A stretch of DNA of 18,655 bases from an uncultured archaeon (GCA_964592405.1 CAZQBY010000001.1:142837-161491), one strand, 5' to 3'; positions 301 through 15,640 are shown, numbered from the stretch's first letter. Program-made: numbers and translations. Notes: generated from the sequence alone by a model not told the origin.

Positions 301-3300
301 ATGACCCTAACAGATACCTTGTCTGATATGTGGCACACTCTGGAGGACCAAGCCTGGAGCCTAGCCGATTTTCTGGAAGACAAGGGGATACCCCTGGCCA
401 GCTTCTGTGAGGACAAGAGCATCAGCCCGTTGCTGTTGTTCCTCGGCATAATAGTCGCTCTCATAATAATACTGATGCTCGTGAGCGGGGGCGGGGCTGC
501 AGCCGGCAATGCCGTTTTGACAGTTACTATAGAGGATGAGAACGGCAACCCCATTCAGACAGACTTTACAGTGAGTTATGAGGGCGCTATGCGCAGAGAG
601 AGGACAGATCTGAACGGTGTTGCAAAGGTGGACGAGCTGCCATATACGACAGTTACTATAACCATAGACTCCAGTAGATACAAGGGAACAAAGCCCATAA
701 CTATAAATAGCGACAAGGCCGACATAAAAATCACGGCCCAGACGATAAAGGCCACTCTCCGGGTTGTTGTCTTGGACAGTGCCGGCGGCTATATATCTGC
801 TGGTTCCGTGGATGTAAAGGATTTCATAAGCGGCACTGTGGTTGCATCAGAAACCCTTGATGGTTCATCCGGCTATGATTTCGAGTTACCCCTTGGCATA
901 TACAGGATTGTTGTAAAATCTGCATCCGGCGGCGAACTAGAGAGCAGGATAGAAGAGCTGAAGGAGGAAAAGGTTTATGAGGCCCAGTTCACGCTGAGTG
1001 CAGATGCTGCGGACTCTGCAGCCGTGAAGATTGTGGTGAGGGACGAAAATGGGAATGCAGTCCCGGACGCCACAGTCGTGCTTTACAACGGCCGCTCTGA
1101 GGCGATGATAGGTACGCAGCAGGTTACAGATGCCCTTGGTGAGACAACATTTTATAACATAGCCATTGGAACCTCTGTATATCCGGTTGTATTCGTCCCA
1201 AACGACAAAAGATATGGTCAGCTGGATGCCTACACCTCCAAGAATGTCTACAAGAAAACGGTTCACAGCACACAGGAGGTCATAGAAGTAAGCCTGCCTC
1301 TTAACGGCAGGGTGGAGGTTATTGTCTGGGACAAGGAGAGCCGGGCATACATAAGCGGTGCTTCAGTCTATATCAGGGCCAAGTCCGGCGATATCCTGAG
1401 TGAGACAAAGCAGACGGATAGCGAGGGCAGGGTCAGTTTCACAGGCTTTGAGGAGAATATTGAGGTTTATCCAGTAGTTACAAAAACCGGATTCAAGGAC
1501 TATGAAAATAAAGAGGATGCCCAGCCGGTTATATACGGATCGGCCGCACGAACCTTTACAGTTGCCCTGGAGCGCGATGGTTCCTTCATACGCTCCATGA
1601 TAACCATAGACGTCAGGGATGCGTTCGGTGATAAAATCGATGGTGTTACTGCCATCCTCTCAGATGTTGAAACAGGCTTTGTCTCTTCACTGTCCAATAC
1701 GGACAACCTCAGCTTTGATGTAGATGCAAACAGGAGATACAATGTAGCTCTGTTCAGATCCGGCTATCTCAGGAAGCTTCTTGAAGATATCGGTCCGGGC
1801 ACACATGAGGCAGTGCTGGAGGTCTCCAACCCGGCCAATTCCGCCAATGTCAGGGTCTGCACCTATACAAACATAAACAATGAACTCTCTCCTGCCACAT
1901 CCACGGTCGAGCTGCTCTATGGTGTATCGGGTGCCCTGATAGACTTGGGTGATACTATTGGGGGACAGGATGAGGATAATTGTATAACATTCACAGACCT
2001 TCCGAGGGAATGGTCGGTGTATGTGCGTGCAACCAGCGATAGCCACTCACCAGTAGAGACGGAGGCTCATCAGCTTATACCCCTCCAGCAGGGCATAACC
2101 CAAATAAATATAACATTCAACTCCCTCCCGCCAAATGCTCCACCCTCCGGCGATGTCAAGGTCTGTGTCAAGGACACGAGAAACAATGCCCTGCCGGGTG
2201 CTGAGGTCATACTCTATGACTTTGATTTGGATTCTCCCTCCTGGACTGGCCAGTATCGCCTCACAACGGCTTCAGACGGCTGTGCCCTGTTCCGCGAGCT
2301 TCCCACAGAGAAAACAGACTATCAGGGGGTTTTATCACCAGTCAGAGTTTATCCCATAGTCTCTGCCTCTGGTTACTCCACCTACAACGGCAAGATTGAA
2401 GGCAATGTTGTTGCAGTGCAGCCACAGGAAACAATTCCCATGGAGGTCAGGCTTTCCAAGGGCGAGGGTATCTGTATAGTGGTGGAAAATGACGGAAGAC
2501 CCCTTGAGGGGGCAGATGTATCTCTTTGTGCCAATGCCCAGTGCAATCAGATACTAGAGGTCAAGAAGACCGGGGCAGATGGTCATGTTATCTTCAACTC
2601 TGATATCCAGTCAATAACTGTCAAAGCGGTGGCCAATCTGGACCGCATTGTCAAGGAGAAGATAGAAAACTTCGCGCTGAGTCAGGTTACCAAGGGCTCC
2701 TGTGGCAGGATAGACCTGAAGACCATAAAACAATATGCTACGGTTACCCTTGATGGCATAGTCGGTATGCAGATAGAGGCAATGCCAAGCGAAAGCAGGG
2801 AGATAGAATTCATACTGAGGGTTAACAGTAAACCCGCTACTGGAGGCACTATCTCTGCCGGAGGGCAAAACAAGATACTGGCAGATGACGGGACGGAGGT
2901 TCTCATAGGGCTTACGGGGGATGTCAATGTGGGAGTTGTCAGAACAGTCAGCGCATCAGAGGGCAGGTATGCCATGCCCTTCATAGCGCCAAGTGCGGAG
3001 GGGCGGTATGACATAACCCTTACAGCGAGTATTCCCGAGTGCAACAGTTGTCAGGGCGACCAGAGGCTGTTGGTCCTGATAGTCGGAGATGGTGATGAAG
3101 ATGATGATGGTGTTTTGGATGAGGACGACAAATGTCCCAGAACGCCACCAGATGCTGTTGTTGATGCCAGCGGATGTCCAATAGCCAGTAGTCAGGATTC
3201 CGATGGCGACAGTGTGCCGGATGACAGGGACAAGTGTCCAAATACTCCTCCCGGAGTGCAGGTGAGCGCAGACGGCTGTCCAATACCGCAGGTTCCAGAT

Positions 3301-4836
3301 GCAGACGGCGACGGCGTGCCAGACCGGCTCGATGCCTTTCCGAACGATGCTACCCAATGGTATCCAGATATGGACATCAACCGTGATGCAATCCCGGATT
3401 ACATACCACAGCAGTTCCCGCAATACTATCAAAACTCTATAAGAATCTGTGTCCAGAGCGATTTGGGCCTTCCGATATATGATGCGGGCATATCGCTCTA
3501 CCATACGGGCGGTGTGCGTCCACAGCCACAAGCATATAATCCGCAAGCCCCCTACTCCGGATATCCCCGTATGCAATATCCATCATACTCTTACGGTCCC
3601 AGCTATGGCCAGCAATGGGAGGTTGCATACCGCAGCGACAACTGCCGCACCTTTATTGGATATACCTCCGTCCGGGGTCTGGGCCTAGGAACATTCTTCA
3701 CGAACTTCCATCTTAGGGTCTCCAAAAGCGGATACGAGACCTATGACAGCGCATCAGGAGACCGGACCAGAATAAGTATAACATCCGGTACAGCAGGAAC
3801 TGCCCTGACAATCACGGTCCGGCTCAAGAGGCTGGGCGCTTCCCGTATGGGAGGGGGAGATATCAACAACCCTGCCAGAAAGGTGGAGCTGGAAAGCCCC
3901 TCCTGGAATCCTTCAGACTCCGATCGCAGGAACAGTGCCAATGTCTATCCCCTTATCAATGATATTGACCGTGACATAAATCTGCGTGTAACCTACTCCC
4001 TCAATCAGGGTGCGGAGGAGAATCTGGACTATTCCATAAGATACACCCTGACAGGCAACAACTGTTATGAGATAGGCGGTGAATCCACCCTGCCCGGAGC
4101 CGGCAGGATGCTCTCAATAAGAAAGGGACAGAGCACGGTTACGGATACCATCACAATATACTCAAAACGTCAATGTTGGGACAGCAACGATCCTACACTT
4201 GAAAATGAGTTTACCCTCACACTGGACGGGAATCTGCTGCAGATAGGCGACATAGAGATATCCAAAAGAAAGACCACTACACGCACCTCCGTGCAGAGGT
4301 TCGAGCCTGTCAGGATAAAAGTGAATCCCCTAGTCGGTGCCACCAAAAAGATACGCGGCGTCAGCGATCTGCCTGAGCTGAAGGACCATCTGACATTCTC
4401 GGGTGGTGTTGTTACAATAGGTACTCTGCCCTATTGTATAGACTCAAGGGCAAATACAGACAAGAGCAGGGTTGTTTCCCGGGGAATCCGGGACAAGACT
4501 GCTGCAGAACACAAGATAGTGATAGAGTTCAAGGGGACAAAGCCTGCCATGCCATCTACACTGGAAAATCTTGTATCCCGTATTGGAGAATACATACGGA
4601 CCCGCCTCAGAAAATCACCTCTTGACTGTAAGGTTTATGTCAATACCTATGATAGGTATATGGGTCATATAGAGGTCGGACAGAAGGGAATGGCCTGTCA
4701 TGAAGCCCGCGCACAGATAGGAGCCAAACAGGTGCAACCGTGGGAGAAGCTCTTCTGCGAAGCCATAGAGAGCGGCCAGACGGAGGGCAATATGCAGCTT
4801 GGCGGCAGCTACTCAATGCACATAGAGTCAAGATGA
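301..4836 (+). CDS. Giant N-terminally anchored surface protein with repeated carboxypeptidase-regulatory-like/prealbumin-like beta-sandwich domains and TSP type-3-like Ca-binding repeats
   Basis: 1511-aa ORF with a hydrophobic helix at ~aa 43-62. Recurrent VxVxDxxGxPxxGAxV...TDxxGxxxF motifs; DxDxDGVxDxxDxCP repeats at ~3085-3402; Tyr/Pro/Gln-rich insert at ~3517-3612. An in-frame TGA at 283-285 limits the start to 301 or later. Confidence 0.88.
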   Translation: MTLTDTLSDMWHTLEDQAWSLADFLEDKGIPLASFCEDKSISPLLLFLGIIVALIIILMLVSGGGAAAGNAVLTVTIEDENGNPIQTDFTVSYEGAMRRERTDLNGVAKVDELPYTTVTITIDSSRYKGTKPITINSDKADIKITAQTIKATLRVVVLDSAGGYISAGSVDVKDFISGTVVASETLDGSSGYDFELPLGIYRIVVKSASGGELESRIEELKEEKVYEAQFTLSADAADSAAVKIVVRDENGNAVPDATVVLYNGRSEAMIGTQQVTDALGETTFYNIAIGTSVYPVVFVPNDKRYGQLDAYTSKNVYKKTVHSTQEVIEVSLPLNGRVEVIVWDKESRAYISGASVYIRAKSGDILSETKQTDSEGRVSFTGFEENIEVYPVVTKTGFKDYENKEDAQPVIYGSAARTFTVALERDGSFIRSMITIDVRDAFGDKIDGVTAILSDVETGFVSSLSNTDNLSFDVDANRRYNVALFRSGYLRKLLEDIGPGTHEAVLEVSNPANSANVRVCTYTNINNELSPATSTVELLYGVSGALIDLGDTIGGQDEDNCITFTDLPREWSVYVRATSDSHSPVETEAHQLIPLQQGITQINITFNSLPPNAPPSGDVKVCVKDTRNNALPGAEVILYDFDLDSPSWTGQYRLTTASDGCALFRELPTEKTDYQGVLSPVRVYPIVSASGYSTYNGKIEGNVVAVQPQETIPMEVRLSKGEGICIVVENDGRPLEGADVSLCANAQCNQILEVKKTGADGHVIFNSDIQSITVKAVANLDRIVKEKIENFALSQVTKGSCGRIDLKTIKQYATVTLDGIVGMQIEAMPSESREIEFILRVNSKPATGGTISAGGQNKILADDGTEVLIGLTGDVNVGVVRTVSASEGRYAMPFIAPSAEGRYDITLTASIPECNSCQGDQRLLVLIVGDGDEDDDGVLDEDDKCPRTPPDAVVDASGCPIASSQDSDGDSVPDDRDKCPNTPPGVQVSADGCPIPQVPDADGDGVPDRLDAFPNDATQWYPDMDINRDAIPDYIPQQFPQYYQNSIRICVQSDLGLPIYDAGISLYHTGGVRPQPQAYNPQAPYSGYPRMQYPSYSYGPSYGQQWEVAYRSDNCRTFIGYTSVRGLGLGTFFTNFHLRVSKSGYETYDSASGDRTRISITSGTAGTALTITVRLKRLGASRMGGGDINNPARKVELESPSWNPSDSDRRNSANVYPLINDIDRDINLRVTYSLNQGAEENLDYSIRYTLTGNNCYEIGGESTLPGAGRMLSIRKGQSTVTDTITIYSKRQCWDSNDPTLENEFTLTLDGNLLQIGDIEISKRKTTTRTSVQRFEPVRIKVNPLVGATKKIRGVSDLPELKDHLTFSGGVVTIGTLPYCIDSRANTDKSRVVSRGIRDKTAAEHKIVIEFKGTKPAMPSTLENLVSRIGEYIRTRLRKSPLDCKVYVNTYDRYMGHIEVGQKGMACHEARAQIGAKQVQPWEKLFCEAIESGQTEGNMQLGGSYSMHIESR
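3085..3402 (+). repeat. Thrombospondin type-3-like Asp-rich calcium-binding repeats (3 clear, 1 degenerate)
   Basis: DEDDDGVLDEDDKCPRTP, DSDGDSVPDDRDKCPNTP, DADGDGVPDRLDAFPND, DINRDAIPD. Confidence 0.85.
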
Positions 4837-7466
4837 AGTCAAATATCGGGAAGATGAAAGCTGGGACAGGGGAGATGATAACGACTGTATGGATTTTGGC
4901 AATGTTCCTGATCTCAATGCTGGCAACACCCCTTGCACTGGCTGATGGGGCGGACAGGGCCGATAGCTCTCTTGCCGGTGTAGTTTACCGCGGCTGGAGC
5001 CTCAGTGAGTGTAAATCGGTCTTCGGCAACTACCCGTATATAACCAACAATCTAAATGCTGTTGTTCCTCCTATAGAGGAAATCTTTAAGCAGTATAAGG
5101 GCCCGTTAATGAAGAGGGTTGGCACTCCGGCTCCAGAGACAACCGGTTGCTATTGTGGTGCGGCGAACGGTCAGCACTATGTAATGAATGAGGATAAAAC
5201 CAAGTGCGTGCTCTGCAAGGGTAGGACGCTTGACCCGAATGCTGTCTATTACACCGACGAAAATGCCGAGGCTGAGGCAGTCTTGCGCGTGGGCGGGGTG
5301 GACATAGGCTGCCGCTGCGCCAAGAAGAGCGGGGATCAGGACTTCCTCAGGATAGAAAACGGCAGATGTATCTACGGCAAGACCAGCCAGCAGGATACTA
5401 TCTGTCAGCAGCGCTTTGGAAAGGAGGGCGTCAAGGTATGCAGCCCGAACGCGCAGGCCGAGACGCCTCTCGGCTCGATAGCGTCTGGTGGTGTGAATAT
5501 AGACTGCTGCTGCGCCGCCGATTACAAGAAGGTGCAGACGGCCGAAACGCTCGGCGGCTACAAGTGCGTCAAGGAGGCAGGGGCTCAGGATAGTGCCTGT
5601 GCGCAGTGGGGGAAGCAGGAAGGCCGCGGGGAGCTTATGGAGTGCCCGGAGGAGTTCAGGGGAACGGACGTCAGCAAGCTCACCGACGCGCAGAAAGAGG
5701 AGCGGGCTCGCAGGAGGGTGGGCCCGATACCCGGAGCAACCAAGCCGGACGGCAGCCCAATAGTCTGCTGCTGCAAGAGCGACTCCGCCCTGATAAACGG
5801 TGTCTGTGTGAAGGATGAGTGCGGGAGCATAGTACCTAACAGTGTTCTGAGTGCTAGGAGCGATGCTGACCCTAACTATCCGGTGAGAGCAGGTGTTGGA
5901 GCGGTAAGTTCGATGCCCGACAAGGAGTGGAATCCGTCTCTCATCCGCCAGTTGCAGCAGAAGAACCTGCAGTGCAGCTGCAGGAAGGGCTCTGTGCCGA
6001 AGGCCCAGGAGGGAGGAAACCCCAATATACTTGTGAAGTGCGATATGCTACCAACTATGACCGGATGCCCCGGCATAATTCCCGGCAGCGTGCCGCTGAC
6101 TGCCCAGAATGCAGACAATGACCAGAGGATTTCGAGAGACAGTATAGACTGGGAGGCGTATATACGGGATGCACTAAGGGATGCGAATCTGGATTGTGCG
6201 TGCGCCAGGGGCACTACAGGCAAGGACATCAACAGCAACGGTCTAAAGGATGTATGTGCTGTAGAAAACCCCGCTTGTATAAACAGTGAGGAGCTGGCAG
6301 CTCTTATGAAGGTGGGCATGTGCACCTCCAAGGATCAGAAGGAGGAGCTCTCACTGAAGCTGGATGAGATAAGCATGGCCGATAAGGGGCCGGTCATCTT
6401 TGTGGGTAGCCGGCAGGTTTCTGTGAAGGATAAACCAATAGATGAATGGCACGTCATTGGAGCATTGGGTTATGGAATTTCCAGAGCCTTAGGTGCCAGA
6501 GCTTTATACTATCTTACTATAGGCGCCAGGGGTTGCAGCTCCAAAGAGCCGGGCGACGATTACAAGTTCCATGAGTTCATTGATTATACCAAATGCATCG
6601 CCGGATATCCCTGCAACGAGATGCCAGTCAGCGGGCTGGCCCATGTCCTGCGGATAAGCTCAGTGGCCGGTGCAGTGGCGGGGGTGAAAAGCACTTCCAT
6701 CGCCAAAATAACGAAAGACCTTGAATCAAAACTGCGGCTACTGTCTGCCAGCAATACTGGAACTGCTAGATCATTAGGCAAGCAGGCAGCCACTCGGGCC
6801 TACAGGATTGCCGGTCTGGATGGAGTTAAAAGGGTTCAAAATGTCCTTTGGAAATTGGGCGAGACACGAACCATAGCTGATGACATAATGAAGGCCGCAG
6901 GTGAAGCTGCCAAGAGTGTCGGGACTAAGTTTGTTAAGGTGAGTAGGCTCTCCACAAGAATGGGCAAATTGGCAGGCTTCCTTGGCAGAACAGGTCGCTG
7001 GTTGGGCAGGGGAATGAATTGGGTAGGCAGGAAGATTCTGGTACCTTATATGGTAATTGATGCAATCAGTTCAGCGGCGTTCTCGGCGTTCTCCAAGGAC
7101 TTGGAGATAAACCCGGGCTCATACACTGTCGCAAAGGCCTCTGTCAAGACTCCTTTCAGTATAAACCCGGGCGTCAGCAGTGGCGAGAGGGTGCCTGCCA
7201 TAAAAACAATAACGTTTAATGTTGGCGGCAACTGGGCGAGCGGGGCGCCCTCATTGCTCCTCGGCGGGGGGATATTTGACGTACAGGGGACAGACGATGT
7301 CACCAAGCCGCCGGATGGGATAGAGGGAAAAGTATATAAATGTGTTGGTTCTTGCACATGTAAAGAAAATGTCCTGAACAATTGTTACTGCTTTGAGGTT
7401 CCCGGCTCAATAAATGAGTTTATTGATACCTCTTCGGCGCCTGCATCCTCATTTATATTTCCCTAA
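4833..7466 (+). CDS. Secreted cysteine-rich hypothetical protein (877 aa) with CxC...C repeats and a basic amphipathic C-terminal region
   Basis: Start moved from 4740 to the ATG at 4833, which forms an ATGA overlap with the upstream stop (downstream Met codons are also possible). Signal-peptide-like MITTVWILAMFLISMLATPLALA; about 38 Cys by hand count; no C-terminal TM plus basic tail. Confidence 0.85.
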   Translation: MKSNIGKMKAGTGEMITTVWILAMFLISMLATPLALADGADRADSSLAGVVYRGWSLSECKSVFGNYPYITNNLNAVVPPIEEIFKQYKGPLMKRVGTPAPETTGCYCGAANGQHYVMNEDKTKCVLCKGRTLDPNAVYYTDENAEAEAVLRVGGVDIGCRCAKKSGDQDFLRIENGRCIYGKTSQQDTICQQRFGKEGVKVCSPNAQAETPLGSIASGGVNIDCCCAADYKKVQTAETLGGYKCVKEAGAQDSACAQWGKQEGRGELMECPEEFRGTDVSKLTDAQKEERARRRVGPIPGATKPDGSPIVCCCKSDSALINGVCVKDECGSIVPNSVLSARSDADPNYPVRAGVGAVSSMPDKEWNPSLIRQLQQKNLQCSCRKGSVPKAQEGGNPNILVKCDMLPTMTGCPGIIPGSVPLTAQNADNDQRISRDSIDWEAYIRDALRDANLDCACARGTTGKDINSNGLKDVCAVENPACINSEELAALMKVGMCTSKDQKEELSLKLDEISMADKGPVIFVGSRQVSVKDKPIDEWHVIGALGYGISRALGARALYYLTIGARGCSSKEPGDDYKFHEFIDYTKCIAGYPCNEMPVSGLAHVLRISSVAGAVAGVKSTSIAKITKDLESKLRLLSASNTGTARSLGKQAATRAYRIAGLDGVKRVQNVLWKLGETRTIADDIMKAAGEAAKSVGTKFVKVSRLSTRMGKLAGFLGRTGRWLGRGMNWVGRKILVPYMVIDAISSAAFSAFSKDLEINPGSYTVAKASVKTPFSINPGVSSGERVPAIKTITFNVGGNWASGAPSLLLGGGIFDVQGTDDVTKPPDGIEGKVYKCVGSCTCKENVLNNCYCFEVPGSINEFIDTSSAPASSFIFP

Positions 7467-7534: not shown

Positions 7535-9328
7535 CTAAACGGAGCTCAGGGTGGGTTTTCTCCTGCGGTAGCGCTTGGCTCTGTAGCCCCTTTTGCCTCC
7601 CAGACCAAATCCTCTCTTGTTCACCAGACGGATGATGAACAGAATGACCACAACCACGACTATTATCACCACTACGCACAACAGCCACCCGCCACCTGTG
7701 CTGCGGACTTCAATTGTGGTTGTGAGCGGCAGGTATCTCTCAGCAGTAACCTCTATTCTGTATACTCCTGCATCAGAGAATTTGTATTCAACCTGCCCGC
7801 CGGCCGGTGTAAGGGTCGCTACACTGCCGTTTGGTGCAGTTATCTTGACCTCAAGAGCCTCCACCGGTCCGCCGGTGTTCGGGTCCAATGTTATGATTGT
7901 GGTACTGTTGCCGGCTACAAGTGCTGAGCTGTTTATTGTCGTTATGGAGACCCTTATACCACAGTCAACAGGGCAATACTGCTCTGCCCCCGGGTCTCCC
8001 TCGCCTGCTCCGCAGATGTCATCCTTACACACTGGGCAGTCCACAGGGCACGCATTGTCTGTTCCTTCGGCATTCTTCTCCGAGAGACTGCAGACTCCAT
8101 CTCCGCAGTTCTGGGGGCTGTCCACAACCACCGTGACTGTATCGGTTGCAGTTTCCCTGCCATCGCTTACCGTAAGGGTTATGACATGCTCTCTGGCTGA
8201 ATCAAAAACCACCTGCGGGTTGACACCATCCGGTATTTCCTGACCGAACGAGTCCTCCCATGTATAGGTCAGCTCATCCCCATCCGGGTCGCTTGAACCG
8301 GAGGCATCAAGAGTGACCACATCACCCACCATAACATACTGGTCTTCGCCAGCATCTGCCACTGGCGGATTGTTCTGTGCTGTCAGAAAGAACGGTGCTG
8401 TGATAGTATCATTGTTTTGCAGACACACAGGGGGCGAGGAGTCTGTGCTGTAACCGTCTTTCGTTACTGCTATATCATAGCAGGCCGGCGTGTCCACCTC
8501 AAAACTAACGGCACCGTTAGTATCCGTAATACCAGTTTCTTCAGAGGCATTATCCCTGGACATAATCTGGACTGTAGCCCCCTCTATGAACTCATTTGTT
8601 TCCAGATCCCTGACCACCGCCGTGAGGGTGGCGGTCCCGGGCTCTATCATCTCAATTCGTGTATCCTCATCCCTGGCGCGGTCCCAGCTGTCAAATATTG
8701 TTGTTGTGTCCTGAAAGCCTCTCTTCTCCACGGTTATCTCATAATCGACGCCCCACTCAAGGTCCTTGAACGTGACCAGGCCGTCTTCGTCCGTTTCGTC
8801 CGTCTCATCATCCTCGTCTATCTCAAATGGTTCATATTTGGATTTCTCATCCGGAAAGATGATTATGTCGTAATCTTCATCCGGGTCAACATCGTTGTCA
8901 TCAAGTTCCTCATCGAGGCTCCTTACTGTGACATCTGCATTCTCGACGGGGTCTCTGTACTGATCCACAACTTCAATCTCAAGGTCAAACTCCTTCGGGC
9001 GCATGACTACGAGAATGTCTGCATCATCATCAAGATCCTCCAGGGCTTCATCGTCGTCAATCTCCTTGTAGTCAGCATGGGTAACCCTGATCCTGTATGA
9101 ATCATCCGCATCCTCCAAGTCATTGCACTGCGCCTCCCCATCATCGTCTGTGTCCTCATCACACATCTGGTCATCACTGCTGTTTGTAATGACAATATTG
9201 GCGTCTTCTATCTCCTCTCCATCTTTGTCCACAACCTTTATATCAACATCAACCGCTGCCGATACCACCGGCATAAGCATAATGGCCACCAGTGCAGCCA
9301 CTAATAAACTTTTCTTAGAGAATGCCAT
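7535..9328 (-). CDS. Acidic surface protein: carboxypeptidase-regulatory-like domains, PKD-like domain, two Cys-rich CGDGxC-type repeats, C-terminal TM anchor
   Basis: ATG at 9328 preceded by GGGTGG (the track's GTG at 9337 lies within this RBS). Signal peptide MAFSKKSLLVAALVAIMLMPVVSA; NNPPVADAGEDQ...VTLDASGSSDPDGDELTYTW is PKD-like; CGDGVC...CPVDC twice (second degenerate); STGGG-TM-Arg/Lys-rich tail. Confidence 0.88.
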   Translation of the reverse strand: MAFSKKSLLVAALVAIMLMPVVSAAVDVDIKVVDKDGEEIEDANIVITNSSDDQMCDEDTDDDGEAQCNDLEDADDSYRIRVTHADYKEIDDDEALEDLDDDADILVVMRPKEFDLEIEVVDQYRDPVENADVTVRSLDEELDDNDVDPDEDYDIIIFPDEKSKYEPFEIDEDDETDETDEDGLVTFKDLEWGVDYEITVEKRGFQDTTTIFDSWDRARDEDTRIEMIEPGTATLTAVVRDLETNEFIEGATVQIMSRDNASEETGITDTNGAVSFEVDTPACYDIAVTKDGYSTDSSPPVCLQNNDTITAPFFLTAQNNPPVADAGEDQYVMVGDVVTLDASGSSDPDGDELTYTWEDSFGQEIPDGVNPQVVFDSAREHVITLTVSDGRETATDTVTVVVDSPQNCGDGVCSLSEKNAEGTDNACPVDCPVCKDDICGAGEGDPGAEQYCPVDCGIRVSITTINSSALVAGNSTTIITLDPNTGGPVEALEVKITAPNGSVATLTPAGGQVEYKFSDAGVYRIEVTAERYLPLTTTIEVRSTGGGWLLCVVVIIVVVVVILFIIRLVNKRGFGLGGKRGYRAKRYRRRKPTLSSV

Positions 9329-9375
9329 TTTTCCCACCCAAAATTATCAAAAATCCAACTATTAAGGGGGATAAG

Positions 9376-9592: not shown

Positions 9593-10513
9593 CTATATTT
9601 CCTCCTTGATTTTCAGCAGGAATGGTTTGACCTCCTTTTTCTCAATCTTGGCCGGCTTTGTATCTCCTGTATCCTCCTCTTTCACCCCCTTCTTTTCCTC
9701 TGCTTCGGCTTCCTTGGACCCTGCCTCTTTCTTTTCCTCTTTCTTTCTGGACGCTTTTTTTGCTCCTTCCTTCTCTTCCTCTCCAGCCGTTTTCTTGGTC
9801 TTGGGCGTCTTGGACTTCTTAAGGAAGGCGCCTTCTTCCCATCCCTTTTCTCCTTTCTTTTTCTCCTTCTTGATCTCTTTCTTGGCCTTCTTCGTATATG
9901 CCTCTAGGTCTTCCTCCTCCCGTGCCAGAAGTATGATAAGCATAATCACTATCACAACTACCAGGAAGGCTATTATGGCTATCTGCATGCTGTTGTCTGC
10001 ACCTGCCACGGCGGCTCCGGCAGCCCCGGCTTCTGGGAGCGCCTCACCCTCCCTGCCAGCCTCTGCCTTTGCTTCCTCTGCCTCTCCGGCTTCAGCTTCG
10101 CCGCCTCCCTCCTCAGTAATGACTACAGAGGGTTTTCCGGCTTCTTCTTCAGATGGTTCTACAAGGACAGAGGGTTTTTCCTCTGGCTTCTCCTCAACGG
10201 GCACGACCACTATCTCCTCTTCTCCACCGGTCTCGGCAACTGCCTCTTCTGCCTCGGGCACCTCTTCGGCTTCTAGCGGAAGCTCTTCTGCCTCAGGCGG
10301 TTTCGCTGTTGGCATAATGCCAAACTTTTCATGAAAGGCGTCCGAATCCACATACATCATGACATCATGTTTCAGCTTCGGAACCGGCTTAACCTTGCCA
10401 AAGGTCTTCTTGAAATATTCATCTGTATAGTAGTAGGTTGCGGATGCGCAATCTATCACAAGCATAAGTAAAACTAAGACTGCCAGGAACATTAGAACAT
10501 TTTTTGTCTTCAT
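9593..10513 (-). CDS. Membrane-anchored low-complexity protein (Glu/Pro/Ala-rich ectodomain, TM helix, Lys/Glu-rich tail)
   Basis: ATG at 10513 follows GAGGTGA (the track's GTG at 10522 is part of this RBS). Signal peptide, acidic linker, IAIIAFLVVVIVIMLIILLA helix and a ~110-aa charged tail. Confidence 0.82.
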   Translation of the reverse strand: MKTKNVLMFLAVLVLLMLVIDCASATYYYTDEYFKKTFGKVKPVPKLKHDVMMYVDSDAFHEKFGIMPTAKPPEAEELPLEAEEVPEAEEAVAETGGEEEIVVVPVEEKPEEKPSVLVEPSEEEAGKPSVVITEEGGGEAEAGEAEEAKAEAGREGEALPEAGAAGAAVAGADNSMQIAIIAFLVVVIVIMLIILLAREEEDLEAYTKKAKKEIKKEKKKGEKGWEEGAFLKKSKTPKTKKTAGEEEKEGAKKASRKKEEKKEAGSKEAEAEEKKGVKEEDTGDTKPAKIEKKEVKPFLLKIKEEI

Positions 10514-10564
10514 CTTATTCACCTCTGTAGATAATAAGGTTTGGGGGAAATAGCGTTCTTAAAA

Positions 10565-10573
10565 TATAAAAAA
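10565..10573 (-). promoter_or_regulatory. TATA box for the 10513 gene
   Basis: TTTTTTATA on the - strand ~52 nt upstream of the ATG. Confidence 0.55.
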
Positions 10574-10583
10574 CTCAGCAAGT

Positions 10584-10641
10584 TTTTCTTACTTTCTTAC
10601 CCAAAACCACTCCAAGTAACCGGTTTTCTTACTTTCTTACC
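10584..10641. repeat. Two exact 18-bp direct repeats (TTTTCTTACTTTCTTACC), 40-bp period
   Basis: Copies at 10584-10601 and 10624-10641; each contains two tandem TTTCTTAC octamers. Confidence 0.9.
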
Positions 10642-10748
10642 ACATCCAACCACAGCCAGTTACAACTAACCGATGCCTGAAAATATCGCATAGAAATGGT
10701 TGTGTCCAGAATCAAAAATCCGGCTAGGATTCCACTATAAAAACCGGT

Positions 10749-12677
10749 TCAGACTTCAAGGTCTGTATGCTCGCCCTTGGTTTGACTGCCCCTTATCGCA
10801 CTCTTTATCTCAGGAAAACTGAATCCCCTCTTTCCTTTTGTCCTAGATTTCACCCCTATCAGCAACAGGATAAAGAGGAAGAGCATAAGCACAAGCAGTG
10901 CCATCAGCAGCAACAGCAGGCTGCTGCTTTCAGCACCTGCAACAGCTGCAGCAGCACCGGCAGGTGTTTCTCCAGTGCTCTGGTTTTCAGGCCCGCTTTC
11001 TGAAGCGATGGTAGATATGGTCGGCAGCACCGGCCCAGCCGGCTCGCTTATCTCCAGCTCCGGAGGTCTTGAAACCATGCACACGGGCCCCTCAAGGTCA
11101 ATGTTCAGCTCCATGAAGGCCTGCTTGTTCTCTCCGGTAGCCACTACTGTTATCTTGGAATGCTCCGGAACGTCTAAAGGCAGAATATAAAGTGCGACAG
11201 GTCTTGTCTCCTTGGGTCTCAGGAGTATACTGTCCGGCTGGATGAGATAATTTCCACCTTCCAGAGACAGAGAAACCTGCTGTTTTACATATCCGGTGTT
11301 CTTTACGTAGAAGGTATATGCATCCCCGCGGCAGTCTATCTGTGTCGGATCCAGTTCCGGAACCAGCTCGATGTCTGCACATGAACCTTCGCCAAATGGC
11401 AGAAGCCTGAGATAGCCGTTCTCAGTGTCTGTGGCATGGCCTGTGGCACTGACCGTGAATGGTATTTCTGCATCTGTTACACACCACGTTCCCATAACAT
11501 CAAAACTGGTCTCTCCGCTTTCTCCGCTGGCCAGTGAGAAGAAATCTCTCTCAAGCGGGACATCCATACCACTTATACTAAGGGTATAATCATCGGCATA
11601 GTAGCCTGTGTTTCTGACTTTCAGGTCATAGGTTACCGGCTCTCCATGGCATGCAGTTATTTCAGGAGGTATAATCTCCAGATCCACATCATAACACTCC
11701 ATAAGCTTGACATTGGTAGTATCGGAATGGGAGTCATAGGCACTGACAGCAGCCAGTGTAAGATTGCATTCACCCATGTCCGGTTCCAGGGTAACGGCTA
11801 TATCCTTCTCTTCTCCGGCTTCCAGATATATAGAATCCTGAGTCAGATGGGCCCTACACGTGCCGCTGAGCTCCAATGAATATGTGTTTGGAACACAGCC
11901 TTTGTTCCTGATATTGACTGTGTAAGTCAGGCCGGCCTCCGGACAGCTGACAAACTCATCGGGTGCCGAAACCGTCGCATAATAACAGTTGACAAGATTA
12001 ACTCTGAGCTTTTTTGAGACAGATTTCATTGGAGATTTTACTATCAGTTCCACATCATAGCTTCCATAGTCATTGCTCAGGCCCCTGAGTGTGATAGAAC
12101 CTGTTCTGGATTCTCCCGGCGCTAGAGACATCCTGCCACCAGCAAAAGAGACACCTATGATGCCTGTAACCCCCCTCACGAAGATGGTATAATCATCCTT
12201 CCTCTGGCCGGTGTTCCTGACTATGAAGTCCACTCTGCCAACCGAACCCTCACAGAGATCTATGGATTGCTGCAGGATCTGCAGGTCCGCTGAATAGCAG
12301 TCGTTTACGCTAAAGATGGCATCATCAGAATCCGAAACCCCATATCCACTGGCAGTTATCGATATTCTGTGCTGACCCAGTATGTCCTGTGCCGGAGTAA
12401 ATGTAGTCCTGATTCTCTCCGTCTGATATGGACCAACAGTTATCTGAGATGGCATATCTGAGGTCATGGGTATGTCTCCTGCAGCAGAGAGCGATATGGC
12501 TCTTGCATTGTCATTGACATTCGTTATCTGGATGTCATAGACAACCGGTTCTCCCTGACACAGGTTGTTTGATACCGGAATGATCTGCAATATGCAGTCA
12601 TTACACACTGCCTGCGCTCCATTTAGTATAATAATGCCCAGAAGAAGGGCCATTACTGATGTTTTCATTCCTGTCAT
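10749..12677 (-). CDS. Surface protein with five COG1470/NEW3-like Ig-fold domains and a C-terminal TM anchor
   Basis: 642 aa with a signal peptide. Repeats YDIQITN, VRNTGQRKDDYTI, IRNKGCVPNTYSL, VRNTGYYADDYTL, VKNTGYVKQQVSL, several followed by LxPGE-like motifs; CY junctions between domains; ATGA overlap with the upstream gene. Confidence 0.86.
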   Translation of the reverse strand: MTGMKTSVMALLLGIIILNGAQAVCNDCILQIIPVSNNLCQGEPVVYDIQITNVNDNARAISLSAAGDIPMTSDMPSQITVGPYQTERIRTTFTPAQDILGQHRISITASGYGVSDSDDAIFSVNDCYSADLQILQQSIDLCEGSVGRVDFIVRNTGQRKDDYTIFVRGVTGIIGVSFAGGRMSLAPGESRTGSITLRGLSNDYGSYDVELIVKSPMKSVSKKLRVNLVNCYYATVSAPDEFVSCPEAGLTYTVNIRNKGCVPNTYSLELSGTCRAHLTQDSIYLEAGEEKDIAVTLEPDMGECNLTLAAVSAYDSHSDTTNVKLMECYDVDLEIIPPEITACHGEPVTYDLKVRNTGYYADDYTLSISGMDVPLERDFFSLASGESGETSFDVMGTWCVTDAEIPFTVSATGHATDTENGYLRLLPFGEGSCADIELVPELDPTQIDCRGDAYTFYVKNTGYVKQQVSLSLEGGNYLIQPDSILLRPKETRPVALYILPLDVPEHSKITVVATGENKQAFMELNIDLEGPVCMVSRPPELEISEPAGPVLPTISTIASESGPENQSTGETPAGAAAAVAGAESSSLLLLLMALLVLMLFLFILLLIGVKSRTKGKRGFSFPEIKSAIRGSQTKGEHTDLEV

Positions 12678-13330
12678 TTTTGACCTCTCAGTATTGTTGC
12701 TATAAGAATAGATAGCACTCCAAGTAGCACGAGCAGCAGCCCGGTCGCAAAGGCTCGGTTGTCTTTACCACCCCTCACCACGGTTACAGCAGCGCCTGCA
12801 GGGGCATGGGCTGCTATTCCATCTACATCCCTATCCTCATCTGTCTTTTCTTTTCCAACTTCCTGCCCGGCTGCCCCCTCCGTGGCCTGTTCAGCCTTTT
12901 CTGGCTGCTTTCTTGCACAGCCCCCCGGTATTCGCAGCAGCACCTCTCTTTCCAAAGACTCCTCAAACTTGCTGACAATCAGGCGTATCCGGTAATCTCC
13001 ATGCGGGAGGTCACAGCCAGCCCTTACAAACATCACCAGATCCTCTTCCTGACCCGAAGGAACCAGTACGGTCTTTGGTTCAAGGCTGATCCATATATCC
13101 TTACTGTCCGGTGACTCTGTCCGGAAATCGTATGCTCTTTGGAAGCGGTGGTTATTGGTTATGTGGATATTGTAGGTTACTGTGCCACAACACATGCTCT
13201 GAATGTGCGGCGATATTTCCACCTCTTCGGCTTCGGCCCCTTCACTCCTAGCACCGCTGATGCCAACTGACATCACAATGGCTGCAATTCCGAGAACTAC
13301 ATAGAGCTTATTGACGTCCAATCTCACCAT
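12674..13330 (-). CDS. Small surface protein with one COG1470/NEW3-like domain and a C-terminal TM anchor
   Basis: 218 aa; N-terminal hydrophobic signal; TVTYNIHITNN...VLVPSGQE...LPHGDYRIRL; C-terminal Leu/Ile helix; overlaps both neighbours (7 and 4 nt). Confidence 0.82.
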   Translation of the reverse strand: MVRLDVNKLYVVLGIAAIVMSVGISGARSEGAEAEEVEISPHIQSMCCGTVTYNIHITNNHRFQRAYDFRTESPDSKDIWISLEPKTVLVPSGQEEDLVMFVRAGCDLPHGDYRIRLIVSKFEESLEREVLLRIPGGCARKQPEKAEQATEGAAGQEVGKEKTDEDRDVDGIAAHAPAGAAVTVVRGGKDNRAFATGLLLVLLGVLSILIATILRGQK

Positions 13331-15156
13331 TTTCTGATTTCAGATCCCGAACCGCCATCCGGCGTAAGTATAGGTTCCTTGACTTTATGCGAGATGACTC
13401 CAAGCCGCTTGTGGGCGGCACTCTCTCCAGTGCTTCTACTACTAAGCAAAAATATAAAAAGCAAGGTAATCAGGGCCAATATGCCAAGTATGAGTATCCA
13501 GTCCGGAATAAGCACATCTCCAATGACGATAGCCCCGGTCGGAGCAGCTATGGTCCTGTTCCCTCCTGCCTCCTCTGTGCGGTTTTCCGCTTCCCCCACC
13601 ATTTCAAGAGGTGTTTCGGGGGCAGGCAATCTAACATCCACATGCAGTATTGTCGAATCTTGGACATTGCCATTCCGAGCAGTTACAGGGATATCATACA
13701 GGCCGGGAGCCATGCTCTCAGGCACTCTTATCTCCAGTTTCCAGGTCTCTACAGCATTTGGAGCAATAGTAACACTCCCCGGCTGGTGGATCCATGGAGC
13801 CATATCACCACCGACCTCCAGTGTTAGCGTTTCCGGCACGTTTCCCTTGTTACTTGCTATTAACGTAAAGGAGCCATTCCCTCCCTGCACTATCTCATGG
13901 CACTCATCCAGGACTCCCAGTTCTATGAAATGCCTTGCCGGCTCGCCACAATCTTCCGGACAGGTCTGCTGGTTTTCGGTCTGGAGATTACAAACCCCGT
14001 CGCCACACCTTGCACAACTGCCACAGTCGCCTGGGCAACTCTGGCATGTTTCGTCGCCATTACAAACCCCATCACCACAGTAGCTCTGGAGTTGGCATGA
14101 AGGCTGTCGGCATGGTACGGGCGGTGCAGGCAGTATGGCTGCACAGTCGACTGGACAGTTATAGGGATTCTCAGCGTCAAGGCATCTGCCATCCCCACAG
14201 TAGGTTCTCAGCTCGCAGCGGTTGCCACTGCACTTATATCCTGATGGGCAGTCTCCATCACCACAACACTGTACGCTCTGCTCAAACTGCCAGTTGCCGT
14301 CGCGGCATACGAGCTTCTGGCGATCCCTGCATGTCTCCTCCCCCTCTTCACCGGACGGGTTTGTGCATTTTGGTTCTCCGCAGTCCAGAGAACAGGTATA
14401 GGGTGATTCATCAGGGTCGCACTTACCGTCTCCGCAGTATGGAGGGAGGCCGCAGTCTTTGGCACAGTTGTATCTGCTTTCGTCTCTGTCGCAGTTACCA
14501 TCCCCGCAGTAGGGGGCAAGGCCACAGTCCTCCGGGCAGGTCTGCTTTGTCTCTGCGCCGTTGCAGACCCCATCGCCGCAGTAGGGCGGCTGACCGCAGT
14601 CTGTCTGGCAGCTGTATTTGGTTTCACCGCCGTTGCATATGCCGTCCCCGCAGTAGGGAGCAGGCTGCTTCGGCGCGCAGTCGTAGTAGCATGAGCTTTC
14701 AGTTTCCCCGTTGTTGCAGACCCCATCCCCGCAGTAGGAAAGGGGCCTGCAGTCAGCGGGGCAGCTGTATTGCGTCTCGCTGCCGGAGCACCAACCATCT
14801 CCACAGCGAGTACTGGTGGGACTTTGGGTGGAACTCTTGGAATATGTTGGTTCTGTCTGTTTTTCTTGTTTGACCACAACAATATTGGTGCAAGACTGAG
14901 CGGTGCATCCGGTATTGTAACCATACCCGATATCATAAGCATATCCACTGCGATATCTATAATAGGGGTAGTACGTGGAATATGTTGGATAATACAGGGT
15001 CGGTGTCACCCAGTTATAGCCGTTCCAGTAGTTTTTCCAATAGGCCCCCTGGCATGAGATACCCACATCCCAGACCGAGCCCATTACAGGTGTCGTGGTT
15101 AGAGTCAAAAATAGCAGCATGCATGCGGTTCCAACCAATAGTCTCCTAGATTCCAT
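13324..15156 (-). CDS. Cys-rich CGDGxC-repeat surface protein with Tyr-rich N-terminus, NEW3-like domain and C-terminal TM anchor
   Basis: 610 aa; GGAGGG RBS; signal peptide; nine CGDGxC...E...C..DC repeats plus one variant; SNKGNVPETLTL...PGLYDIPVTA domain; WILILGILALITLLFIFLL anchor. Confidence 0.88.
   Translation of the reverse strand: MESRRLLVGTACMLLFLTLTTTPVMGSVWDVGISCQGAYWKNYWNGYNWVTPTLYYPTYSTYYPYYRYRSGYAYDIGYGYNTGCTAQSCTNIVVVKQEKQTEPTYSKSSTQSPTSTRCGDGWCSGSETQYSCPADCRPLSYCGDGVCNNGETESSCYYDCAPKQPAPYCGDGICNGGETKYSCQTDCGQPPYCGDGVCNGAETKQTCPEDCGLAPYCGDGNCDRDESRYNCAKDCGLPPYCGDGKCDPDESPYTCSLDCGEPKCTNPSGEEGEETCRDRQKLVCRDGNWQFEQSVQCCGDGDCPSGYKCSGNRCELRTYCGDGRCLDAENPYNCPVDCAAILPAPPVPCRQPSCQLQSYCGDGVCNGDETCQSCPGDCGSCARCGDGVCNLQTENQQTCPEDCGEPARHFIELGVLDECHEIVQGGNGSFTLIASNKGNVPETLTLEVGGDMAPWIHQPGSVTIAPNAVETWKLEIRVPESMAPGLYDIPVTARNGNVQDSTILHVDVRLPAPETPLEMVGEAENRTEEAGGNRTIAAPTGAIVIGDVLIPDWILILGILALITLLFIFLLSSRSTGESAAHKRLGVISHKVKEPILTPDGGSGSEIRKW
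13945..14806 (-). repeat. Coding tandem repeats CGDGxCxxxExxxxCxxDC
   Basis: Visible in protein (~24-aa period for the first six copies) and in DNA (recurrent CCGCAGTAGGG on the + strand). Boundaries approximate. Confidence 0.85.
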
Positions 15157-15276: not shown

Positions 15277-15564
15277 CTAGCAGTAGCAGTATCCTCCAAC
15301 CCAGCTACAGCCGGCACTACAGTATATGCCCCCATAATCGTAGCCATAAGCATAACCATAATGGAAGTAGCTATGGTAATAGGGGTAGTAATAATATGGG
15401 TAATAGGCATAATAGTAGGGATAATAGGGATATGCGTAATATCCGACCCCTATCTGGGAGCCATATGGATAGTATCCACTGCTATAATAGATTACGGTGC
15501 CCTGAGCACTGCCTCCAAGCGAGACTGCAAGCAGGATCAGCAGGGCAAGGTTAATGATCTTCAT
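15277..15564 (-). CDS. Small secreted tyrosine-rich protein (95 aa) with a four-Cys C-terminus
   Basis: ATG at 15564 follows GGGGGTGA; signal peptide MKIINLALLILLAVSLGGSAQG; 30 Tyr in the 73-aa predicted mature part; ends CSAGCSWVGGYCYC. Confidence 0.8.
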   Translation of the reverse strand: MKIINLALLILLAVSLGGSAQGTVIYYSSGYYPYGSQIGVGYYAYPYYPYYYAYYPYYYYPYYHSYFHYGYAYGYDYGGIYCSAGCSWVGGYCYC

Positions 15565-15640
15565 TGCTGTCACCCCCATATGTAGGTGTGCATTGCCTCT
15601 CCATTTGCAGGTATGCACATTGTAGGTATGAACCTAAAAG

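Follow-up and report, generated by a model that had tools for sequence, protein, structure and literature searches.

A P-T-G motif-plus-anchor module on surface proteins of an Altiarchaeota-like archaeal family, and an archaeosortase homologue that may read it

The DNA analyzed here is an 18,655-nucleotide stretch from an uncultured archaeon (G000:C1:142837-161491; "the window" below means this whole stretch), in which four adjacent genes, A to D, encode secreted proteins that carry a short motif of the type P-T-G, decayed in A, just ahead of their C-terminal membrane anchor (Table 1). The genome of origin, G000, comprises 1.13 Mb in 22 contigs and is 87% complete; it belongs to a family of eight genomes (f1), which we compared with 53 other genomes of the phylum (61 in total). 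In all four proteins the N terminus bears a signal-like hydrophobic segment, and an acidic or N-x-T-rich (sequon-rich) linker leads into the motif, a single C-terminal transmembrane helix and the basic start of a tail. The start of C overlaps the stop of D by a few bases, as does the stop of C with the start of B; judged by sequence, these genes therefore form one transcription unit. The row D-C-B-A-E is syntenic in genomes G002, G003 and G005, and orthologues of B are present in five of the seven other genomes of the family. The four motif strings sit, in minus-strand translation, at exactly the positions given in the original prediction, which was made from the window alone and which placed them on differing ectodomains. 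This holds for A, which is acidic and without a family match over the whole protein in NCBIfam or Pfam, and for D, which is built of Cys-rich repeats; B and C, however, share the immunoglobulin-like (Ig-like) domain FixG_C (PF11614; 57 bits in B, E 7e-4 in C), so the ectodomains are not all unrelated.

To describe the module beyond these four copies, we aligned 34 distinct instances, which gave the consensus E-[S/A/T]-P-[T>A>S]-G-[A/G]-[A/V/F]-[V/I/L]-x-G, followed by about eight residues, a helix of 19 to 25 amino acids (aa) in every instance, and a basic cluster. With motif and helix in all 34 and a basic start to nearly every tail, the module has the tripartite architecture of the PEP-CTERM/PGF-CTERM class (motif, helix, basic cluster). 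Because the instances were anchored on the proline, its presence in 34/34 is by construction. Counted from this residue, position -2 is chiefly Glu and position -1 Ser, Ala or Thr, while position +1 is Thr in 23 instances, Ala in seven and Ser in four. Gly follows at +2 (32 instances, with Ala in the other two), Ala (22) or Gly (6) at +3, hydrophobic residues at +4 and +5, and frequently Gly at +7. From the Gly to the helix, the spacer spans 7 to 24 aa (median, 8) and contains Asp or Glu in 25 instances, and the helix opens with Trp in 16. Nearly every tail starts with a lysine or arginine or has one at its first or second residue; tail length is at most 10 aa in 17 instances, 11 to 40 aa in 10 and more than 40 aa in seven. 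At no position between -8 and +15 does Cys rank with the six most frequent residues. In the four window copies, for which the original prediction gave a spacer of 4 to 10 aa, the spacer measures 11 to 13 aa when counted from the Gly. The motif itself stands, whereas the expression originally written for it, [PA][AT]GA[AI], is too narrow for the orthologues: it matches 11 times among 1,184 crude open reading frames (ORFs) of G000, and a C-terminal anchor follows in the four window copies only.

Next, we asked whether the motif is enriched ahead of C-terminal helices in the genome of origin. The strict motif was found in 6 of 75 C-terminal-anchor windows of G000, where 0.25 would be expected by chance under uniform density and 0.27 from shuffles within the windows; none of 5,000 composition-preserving shuffles reached six. 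For this count, helix segments no more than 12 aa apart were merged, since unmerged calling split anchors and gave 3/59. Since B, C, D and their orthologues were already known when the pattern was drawn up, the independent part of the test consists of the three carriers outside the window, F, G and H, which lie on contigs C2, C9 and C12. Altogether, six differing secreted proteins of G000 carry the module, or seven if the decayed copy in A is counted, with at least three kinds of ectodomain: the Cys-rich repeats of D recur in F, G and H, next to the acidic type of A and the Ig-like type of B and C. The positional enrichment on which the original prediction depended is thus present.

Conservation was assessed in orthologue groups formed by BLASTP of the ectodomain alone, trimmed of the 35 residues next to the anchor, and the G000 copy was counted. 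P-[T/S/A]-G was kept in 5/5 members of both group C and group F, 8/9 of group G, 4/6 of group B, 3/5 of group D, 4/8 of group H and 1/4 of group A; groups G and H take in paralogues joined through their common Cys-rich repeats. Protein E, which is anchored C-terminally in the same gene row yet is free of the motif (0/5), serves as an internal negative control. Orthologues share the core P-[T/S/A]-G-[A/G/F/M]-[A/V/I/F]; upstream of it, their linkers vary in sequence and length. In B, for example, orthologues read PSG, PTG and PSG beside the variants P-V-A-G and T-T-G, and in D they read PTGAV/PTGAF in G005 and G002 and ATGGS in G003. The proline of A is lost in G000, G001, G002 and G003. As the G005 orthologue keeps APTGALL, and two metagenome proteins of the A family, P0034 and P0037, keep P-[T/S]-G as well (APTGAAV and SPSGAAV), the copy in the window is a decayed one.

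Conservation extends to the cytoplasmic side. The tail of A (9596-9922, minus strand) ends in KPFLLKIKEEI, and K-P-F-L-L-K-I-K/R-E/D-E is present in every A homologue seen; so is a D-W-E-E-G-x-F stretch, which recurs in P0034 and P0037 too. The tail of B holds a conserved FSFPEIKSA-like stretch, of which F-P-E and I-K-x-A-I are kept, and the H family keeps a tail of roughly 100 aa. The longer tails, found in about half of the carriers, are conserved and probably functional.

To follow the module across genomes, we built a hidden Markov model (HMM), A1, from 19 motif-plus-helix segments and searched it in all 61 genomes, as had been suggested originally; Pro and Gly are invariant in A1 by construction, because the segments were chosen by the pattern. 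At an E value of ≤1e-4, A1 returned 32 matches in 8/8 genomes of f1, 13 of them outside the training set, with one to six matches per genome (five in G003 and six in G005). D scores 46.9 bits, whereas the decayed A reaches just 19.6 bits over model positions 10 to 42. In the 53 other genomes, two matches were found at this threshold, both confined to the helix part of the model (positions 19/20 to 46), and the same contrast between f1 and the rest is seen at E ≤1. Among 1.84 billion representative proteins, 16 reach E ≤1e-3. In thirteen of these the match is a tail of this kind, the proteins being of the A, B, C, D, F and G types; of the remaining three, one matches by its helix part only, and the others, one with an array of FN3 domains and one with a short repeat in four copies, are repeat proteins of unrelated origin. 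Within HMMER's reach for so short a model, both searches show the module to be rare and bound to one clade. These results confirm a clade-specific module on at least six protein families of a small uncultured Altiarchaeota-like archaeal group.

Table 1. Coordinates of the genes and modules in the window and of related features elsewhere. Positions without a prefix count from the first nucleotide of the window.
Feature	Position	Strand	Description	Basis
Gene D	13324..15156	-	610 aa, secreted, Cys-rich repeats, PTG-type C-terminal module, 37-aa cytoplasmic tail	ORF
Motif of D, PTGAIV	13525..13542	-		Translation
Transmembrane helix of D	13438..13500	-	Starts 11 aa past the motif Gly	
Gene C	12674..13330	-	218 aa, secreted, Ig-like (FixG_C), module, 4-aa basic tail RGQK	ORF + Pfam
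Motif of C, PAGAAV	12785..12802	-		Translation
Transmembrane helix of C	12689..12754	-		
Gene B	10749..12677	-	642 aa, secreted, several Ig-like domains, module, 33-aa tail	ORF + Pfam
Motif of B, PAGAAAAVAGA	10932..10964	-		Translation
Transmembrane helix of B	10851..10919	-		
Gene A	9593..10522	-	309 aa, secreted, acidic, decayed module, 109-aa Lys/Glu-rich cytoplasmic tail	ORF
Degenerate motif of A, AAGAAVAGA	9998..10024	-	GAAVAGA at 9998-10018	
Transmembrane helix of A	9923..9982	-		
Gene E	7535..9337	-	600 aa, PKD / CarboxypepD_reg surface protein, C-terminal anchor, motif-free	ORF + Pfam
E orthologues	L017:659-2521, L018:6008-7858, L019:13772-15646			
Carrier F	G000:C2:53669-54754		361 aa, ends three residues past the helix	
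Carrier G	G000:C9:10398-13133		911 aa, ends five residues past the helix	
Carrier H	G000:C12:13-1533		Truncated by the contig start, 115-aa tail	
Archaeosortase homologue	G000:C5:83567-84232		221 aa as called, relatives ~198 aa; only such protein in G000	

The motif also occurs in two other settings in G000. A 1,544-aa protein outside the window (G000:C1:56221-60855, plus strand) holds S-P-A-G-A-T-V and Y-P-T-G-A-V-S-G near residues 900 to 930, with no helix after either copy, and in a 182-aa hydrophobic membrane protein (G000:C12:7796-8344, plus strand) E-P-T-G-F-A-L-A-G abuts the first helix near the N terminus.

The module was then compared with sorting signals that are already defined. No CTERM model of NCBIfam exceeded its cut-off, whether the library was run on seven full proteins (E ≤1) or on six tails (E ≤10), and Pfam on the full proteins likewise gave no such signal. 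On the six tails, LPXTG_anchor reached 8.3 to 11.1 bits against a cut-off of 15.9, through the helix part only. Searched against the whole of G000, PGF_CTERM gave a single, helix-only match of 10.6 bits at another site, and PACE-CTERM-PROT (NF033506) gave none. The literature that we searched reports no archaeosortase or sorting tail for Altiarchaeota and no relevant term of the PTG-CTERM type. Four known classes were tried and set aside. The LPXTG signal of sortase A is alike in having T-G in its motif, a spacer, a hydrophobic helix, a basic tail and N-terminal signal peptides on its carriers; here, however, P adjoins T-G, with neither the L nor the x of that pentapeptide, and no sortase (PF04203) was matched in the 87% complete G000 at E ≤1. 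Nor are such archaea known to possess peptidoglycan that could serve as the acceptor. The GlyGly-CTERM/rhombosortase class, defined by a Gly/Ser motif that abuts the helix and by a dedicated, co-occurring rhomboid, was rejected because its model finds no match and the sole rhomboid is present in 57 of the 61 genomes, and the Cys-containing, CPBP-type (myxosortase) signals because no common Cys exists between -8 and +15. The fourth class, the class III or prepilin signal, concerns a likeness drawn in the original prediction. Prepilin peptidase recognizes an N-terminal basic-Gly-hydrophobic site and cuts at the cytoplasmic face. G000 does encode such a peptidase, but the motif described here is C-terminal to the ectodomain, on the outer side of the C-terminal anchor, in proteins with N-terminal signal peptides, and the likeness fails on this topology. 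The broader idea of a sorting signal fared better: lack of enrichment, lack of conservation in orthologues and a match to a defined CTERM model were each looked for, and none of the three was found.

The original prediction noted no processing enzyme in the window; a candidate is encoded elsewhere in the genome, on contig C5 (Table 1). This protein is above the cut-offs of two general models of the exosortase/archaeosortase family (TIGR04178, 30.1 versus 23; PF09721, 26.1 to 27.3 versus 25.7) and below those of every named subfamily (ArtA to ArtF, XrtA to XrtZ, pace-, heimdall- and thaumarchaeosortase), with XrtG (32.3 versus 102.75) and ArtD (25.4 versus 125) scoring best. Three residues are invariant among seven orthologues, Cys129 (in L-C-S-G), Arg171 (in N-P-x-R-I) and His191, which, going by the family motifs, would be the catalytic residues. 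Cys, Arg and His are described as the catalytic set of the exosortase/archaeosortase family (PMC6098224). The enzyme was found in seven of the eight f1 genomes, the exception being G006, which is 64% complete, and at E ≤1e-5 in none of the 53 others. Among 5.8 billion proteins it has 22 relatives with 47 to 100% identity, which are named, if at all, "exosortase/archaeosortase family protein." Scanning genome contigs with the enzyme alignment, which catches close relatives only, returned six loci, all of this family. Compared with solved structures, the enzyme profile gave only chance matches to membrane proteins (E ≥0.025). Complex prediction from the enzyme and tail alignments scored 0.00 with controls not run, and we count it neither way.

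Given this candidate, we tentatively read the module as a lineage-specific sorting signal of the archaeosortase type, for which the unclassified archaeosortase homologue of f1 may well be the reader. Cleavage of the P-T-G carriers is proposed on the basis of their sequences and of the distribution of both partners. The carriers would be exported via Sec by their N-terminal signal peptides and held in the membrane by the C-terminal helix with the basic cluster inside, which would place the P-T-G patch just outside the membrane. There, the archaeosortase homologue would most likely recognize motif and helix, cut in or near P-T-G and transfer the ectodomain to a different anchor, in the manner of ArtA acting on PGF-CTERM proteins. 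Carriers with a short basic tail, about half of the total, would be classical substrates. For the A, B, D and H families, either cleavage may leave a functional stub in the membrane or the module may be a docking site only.

In favor of this reading, the distributions of enzyme and signal nearly match, with 7/8 and 8/8 genomes in f1 and 0/53 outside it for both, helix-only A1 matches aside. The parallel to ArtA and the PGF-CTERM proteins, such as the S-layer glycoprotein of Haloferax volcanii, is close in several respects: several surface proteins exported via Sec bear a short motif of Pro and Gly, then a helix and a basic cluster, all preceded by a glycosylation-type linker, and to these many proteins there is one polytopic exosortase/archaeosortase family member, which has Cys, Arg and His. 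It differs in that the motif here is P-T-G-A rather than P-G-F, with a spacer of about 8 aa and without a match to the PGF_CTERM model, in that tails are longer and conserved on half of the carriers, and in that the f1 enzyme, with about 200 aa, falls below all ArtA to ArtF cut-offs and has pilus-like genes next to it. Every subfamily of archaeosortases goes with a motif of its own (PMC6098224). The lineage-specific pairs already defined (the pace- system, NF033505/NF033506, as well as heimdall- and thaumarchaeosortase) likewise combine a clade-restricted small archaeosortase with a clade-restricted tail, but the f1 enzyme has no paceosortase match at E ≤0.1 and scores 21.7 bits against a heimosortase cut-off of 130.

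Several observations weigh against an archaeosortase signal. Co-occurrence of enzyme and signal is confined to one clade and hence amounts to a single evolutionary event, and within f1 the enzyme gene adjoins no carrier, either in G000, where no A1 match lies within a few kilobases of it on contig C5, or in the seven enzyme loci. Instead, its neighbors are a divergently transcribed secretion-ATPase-like gene (817 aa) on one side and, on the other, a protein of 935 aa with a class III (pilin-type) signal (G000:C5:81078-87027; loci L001 and L008). The ATPase-like gene, whose matches to FlaI and TadA are weak, stands back to back with the enzyme in 6/7 loci, and a large protein with a class III-type signal follows the enzyme gene in 4/7. 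In Methanococcus maripaludis, natural transformation, which depends on type IV-like pili, requires a short archaeosortase, ArtE (PMC10133366). In addition, the often acidic spacer of about eight residues is unlike the motifs of membrane-embedded enzymes: according to the Haft 2023 preprint, PEP-, PGF- and GlyGly-CTERM motifs, which such enzymes cut, abut the helix, whereas LPXTG has a spacer. Tails exceed 10 aa in half of the instances and 40 aa in seven, and those of A, B and H are conserved, which would be odd for a segment that is discarded. Long tails do not exclude cleavage, because ArtA also cuts a PGF module placed mid-protein in a fusion protein, a case presented there as exceptional (PMC6098224). 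Finally, a second membrane protein, the CPBP-family protease CPBP-2, is nearly confined to f1 too, although to just 5/8 of its genomes.

The same tails and the same spacing could alternatively mean that nothing is cut. The module might be a permanent juxtamembrane element, with P-T-G and the short beta-prone stretch after it acting as a hinge or docking strand, and it might then keep the proteins together in one surface lattice or bring the operon's products into pairs; we regard this as possible, if rather unlikely. The cytoplasmic tails conserved among orthologues of A, B, D and H fit an uncleaved protein, the near-constant spacer suggests a fixed geometry relative to the membrane, and P-x-G-A-V-V, which is part of every FN3 repeat in the unrelated protein P0030, is evidently strand-prone. 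The isolated position of the enzyme gene points in this direction as well. On the other hand, 17 of the 34 carriers end 2 to 8 residues past the helix, with the bare basic cluster that is the classical form of a removable signal, the module does not extend beyond the clade in which the special archaeosortase homologue occurs, and the co-operonic protein E manages without it. If the module is indeed cut, the enzyme could be a different one, namely, CPBP-2, a rhomboid or an unrecognized peripheral protease of the sortase type, an explanation that we consider improbable. A peripheral enzyme would be compatible with the spacer: LPXTG signals, which such an enzyme reads, likewise have motif and helix set apart (Haft 2023 preprint). 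CPBP-2 (G000:C1:68724-69302, 192 aa) has a single weak match (E 6e-6) among the 53 other genomes, and a rhomboid as well as another CPBP protease, CPBP-1, are encoded in G000. Yet, the rhomboid is not specific, since it is so widespread in the phylum, and CPBP-1, present in 7/8 f1 genomes including G000, is found in the signal-free families f3 (4/4) and f9 too. CPBP-2 was not found in G001, nor in G003 and G005, which carry five and six signals, and the lack of a PF04203 match in the 87% complete G000 at E ≤1 speaks against a sortase. Moreover, the CPBP-type signals described so far have an invariant Cys (Haft 2023 preprint), and the module has no common Cys between -8 and +15. CPBP-2 thus remains a weaker rival to the archaeosortase homologue.

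At the other extreme, the motif could reflect nothing more than composition or shared descent, that is, Ala/Gly/Pro-rich linkers of tandem paralogues without a selected function. B and C do share a domain, as D, F, G and H share their Cys-rich repeats, and the A copy has drifted in four of five genomes. We nevertheless hold this to be very improbable: shuffles that keep the composition of each window give 0.27 hits where six were observed, the motif stays fixed while the linkers around it vary, the A family has it too, though unrelated to the other carriers, and it is absent from E. Conversely, it is tempting to speculate that P-T-G is the site at which the small archaeosortase splits bitopic surface proteins, passing the ectodomain to a new anchor or a surface structure, although we think this quite unlikely. 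On the same speculation, to which we would give no greater credence, the enzyme would be tied genetically to the secretion ATPase and the giant pilin-like protein, and the stubs of A, B, D and H would act inside the cell. Were this true, a sortase-type reaction would double as a signaling or assembly step coupled to a type IV pilus-like machine.

C-terminal sorting signals determine which proteins cells display and how these are held. Altiarchaeota-like archaea are uncultured and combine small genomes with elaborate surface proteins, and the motif-plus-helix HMM picks out the surface proteome of one of their families. Reading the module as an archaeosortase signal offers a specific pairing of enzyme and substrates that is testable in a tractable archaeon. 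Its spacer and retained tails could show whether archaeosortases are able to act away from the membrane, or on substrates whose cytoplasmic part stays functional. Should the pairing fail, the module would still be a conserved, unexplained juxtamembrane element.

Related systems exist elsewhere in the phylum, where members of the exosortase/archaeosortase superfamily were found in 24/61 genomes. In two genomes of a sister family, G037 (L119:1477-2769) and G012 (L120:1477-2927), an XrtA-like enzyme (8TM_EpsH, 148.6 bits versus 105.55) lies directly beside proteins with PEP-CTERM-like tails, consisting of V/L-P-E-A, a helix and a basic cluster. Each locus thus holds a predicted PEP-CTERM-like, bacterial-type exosortase pair in an archaeal phylum. 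These enzymes belong to the same superfamily as the f1 homologue; they differ in that they are members of 8TM_EpsH with about 270 aa and that the motifs beside them abut the helix, and the f1 enzyme has no match in G037 or G012 at E ≤1e-5. The other superfamily members and the PEP-CTERM-like pairs indicate that the phylum uses systems of this kind, f1 having both an enzyme and a tail of its own. In genus g4 there is a second archaeosortase-family gene, of 175 to 179 aa and highly divergent (L136:2855-4912 in G005:C6 and L137:3007-5102 in G007:C1), which stands tail to tail with a gene for a secreted protein. The neighboring proteins of the two genomes are homologous (E 8e-13); the G005 copy ends in A-P-S-G-E-L-S, a helix at once and K-P-G-K-K-N, and the G007 copy is apparently split between two frames.

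The remaining observations concern the surroundings of the operon. In four genomes, the basic tail of protein E on the cytoplasmic side is conserved, with K-G-Y-R-x-x-x-Y-R-R-x-K-P-(T/S)-L-S-(S/T)-(V/I) at its end. Two plus-strand genes face the operon: 301-4836 encodes an exported 1,511-aa protein with CarboxypepD_reg, Big_1 and thrombospondin type 3 repeats, a homologue of which comes after the gene row in G003, and 4740-7466 encodes an exported 908-aa Cys-rich protein without a family match. On the minus strand, 15277-15618 is a 113-aa secreted ORF made up almost entirely of Tyr/Pro/Gly repeats, and the N terminus of D (about 14900-15080) opens with a Tyr-rich stretch that resembles it.

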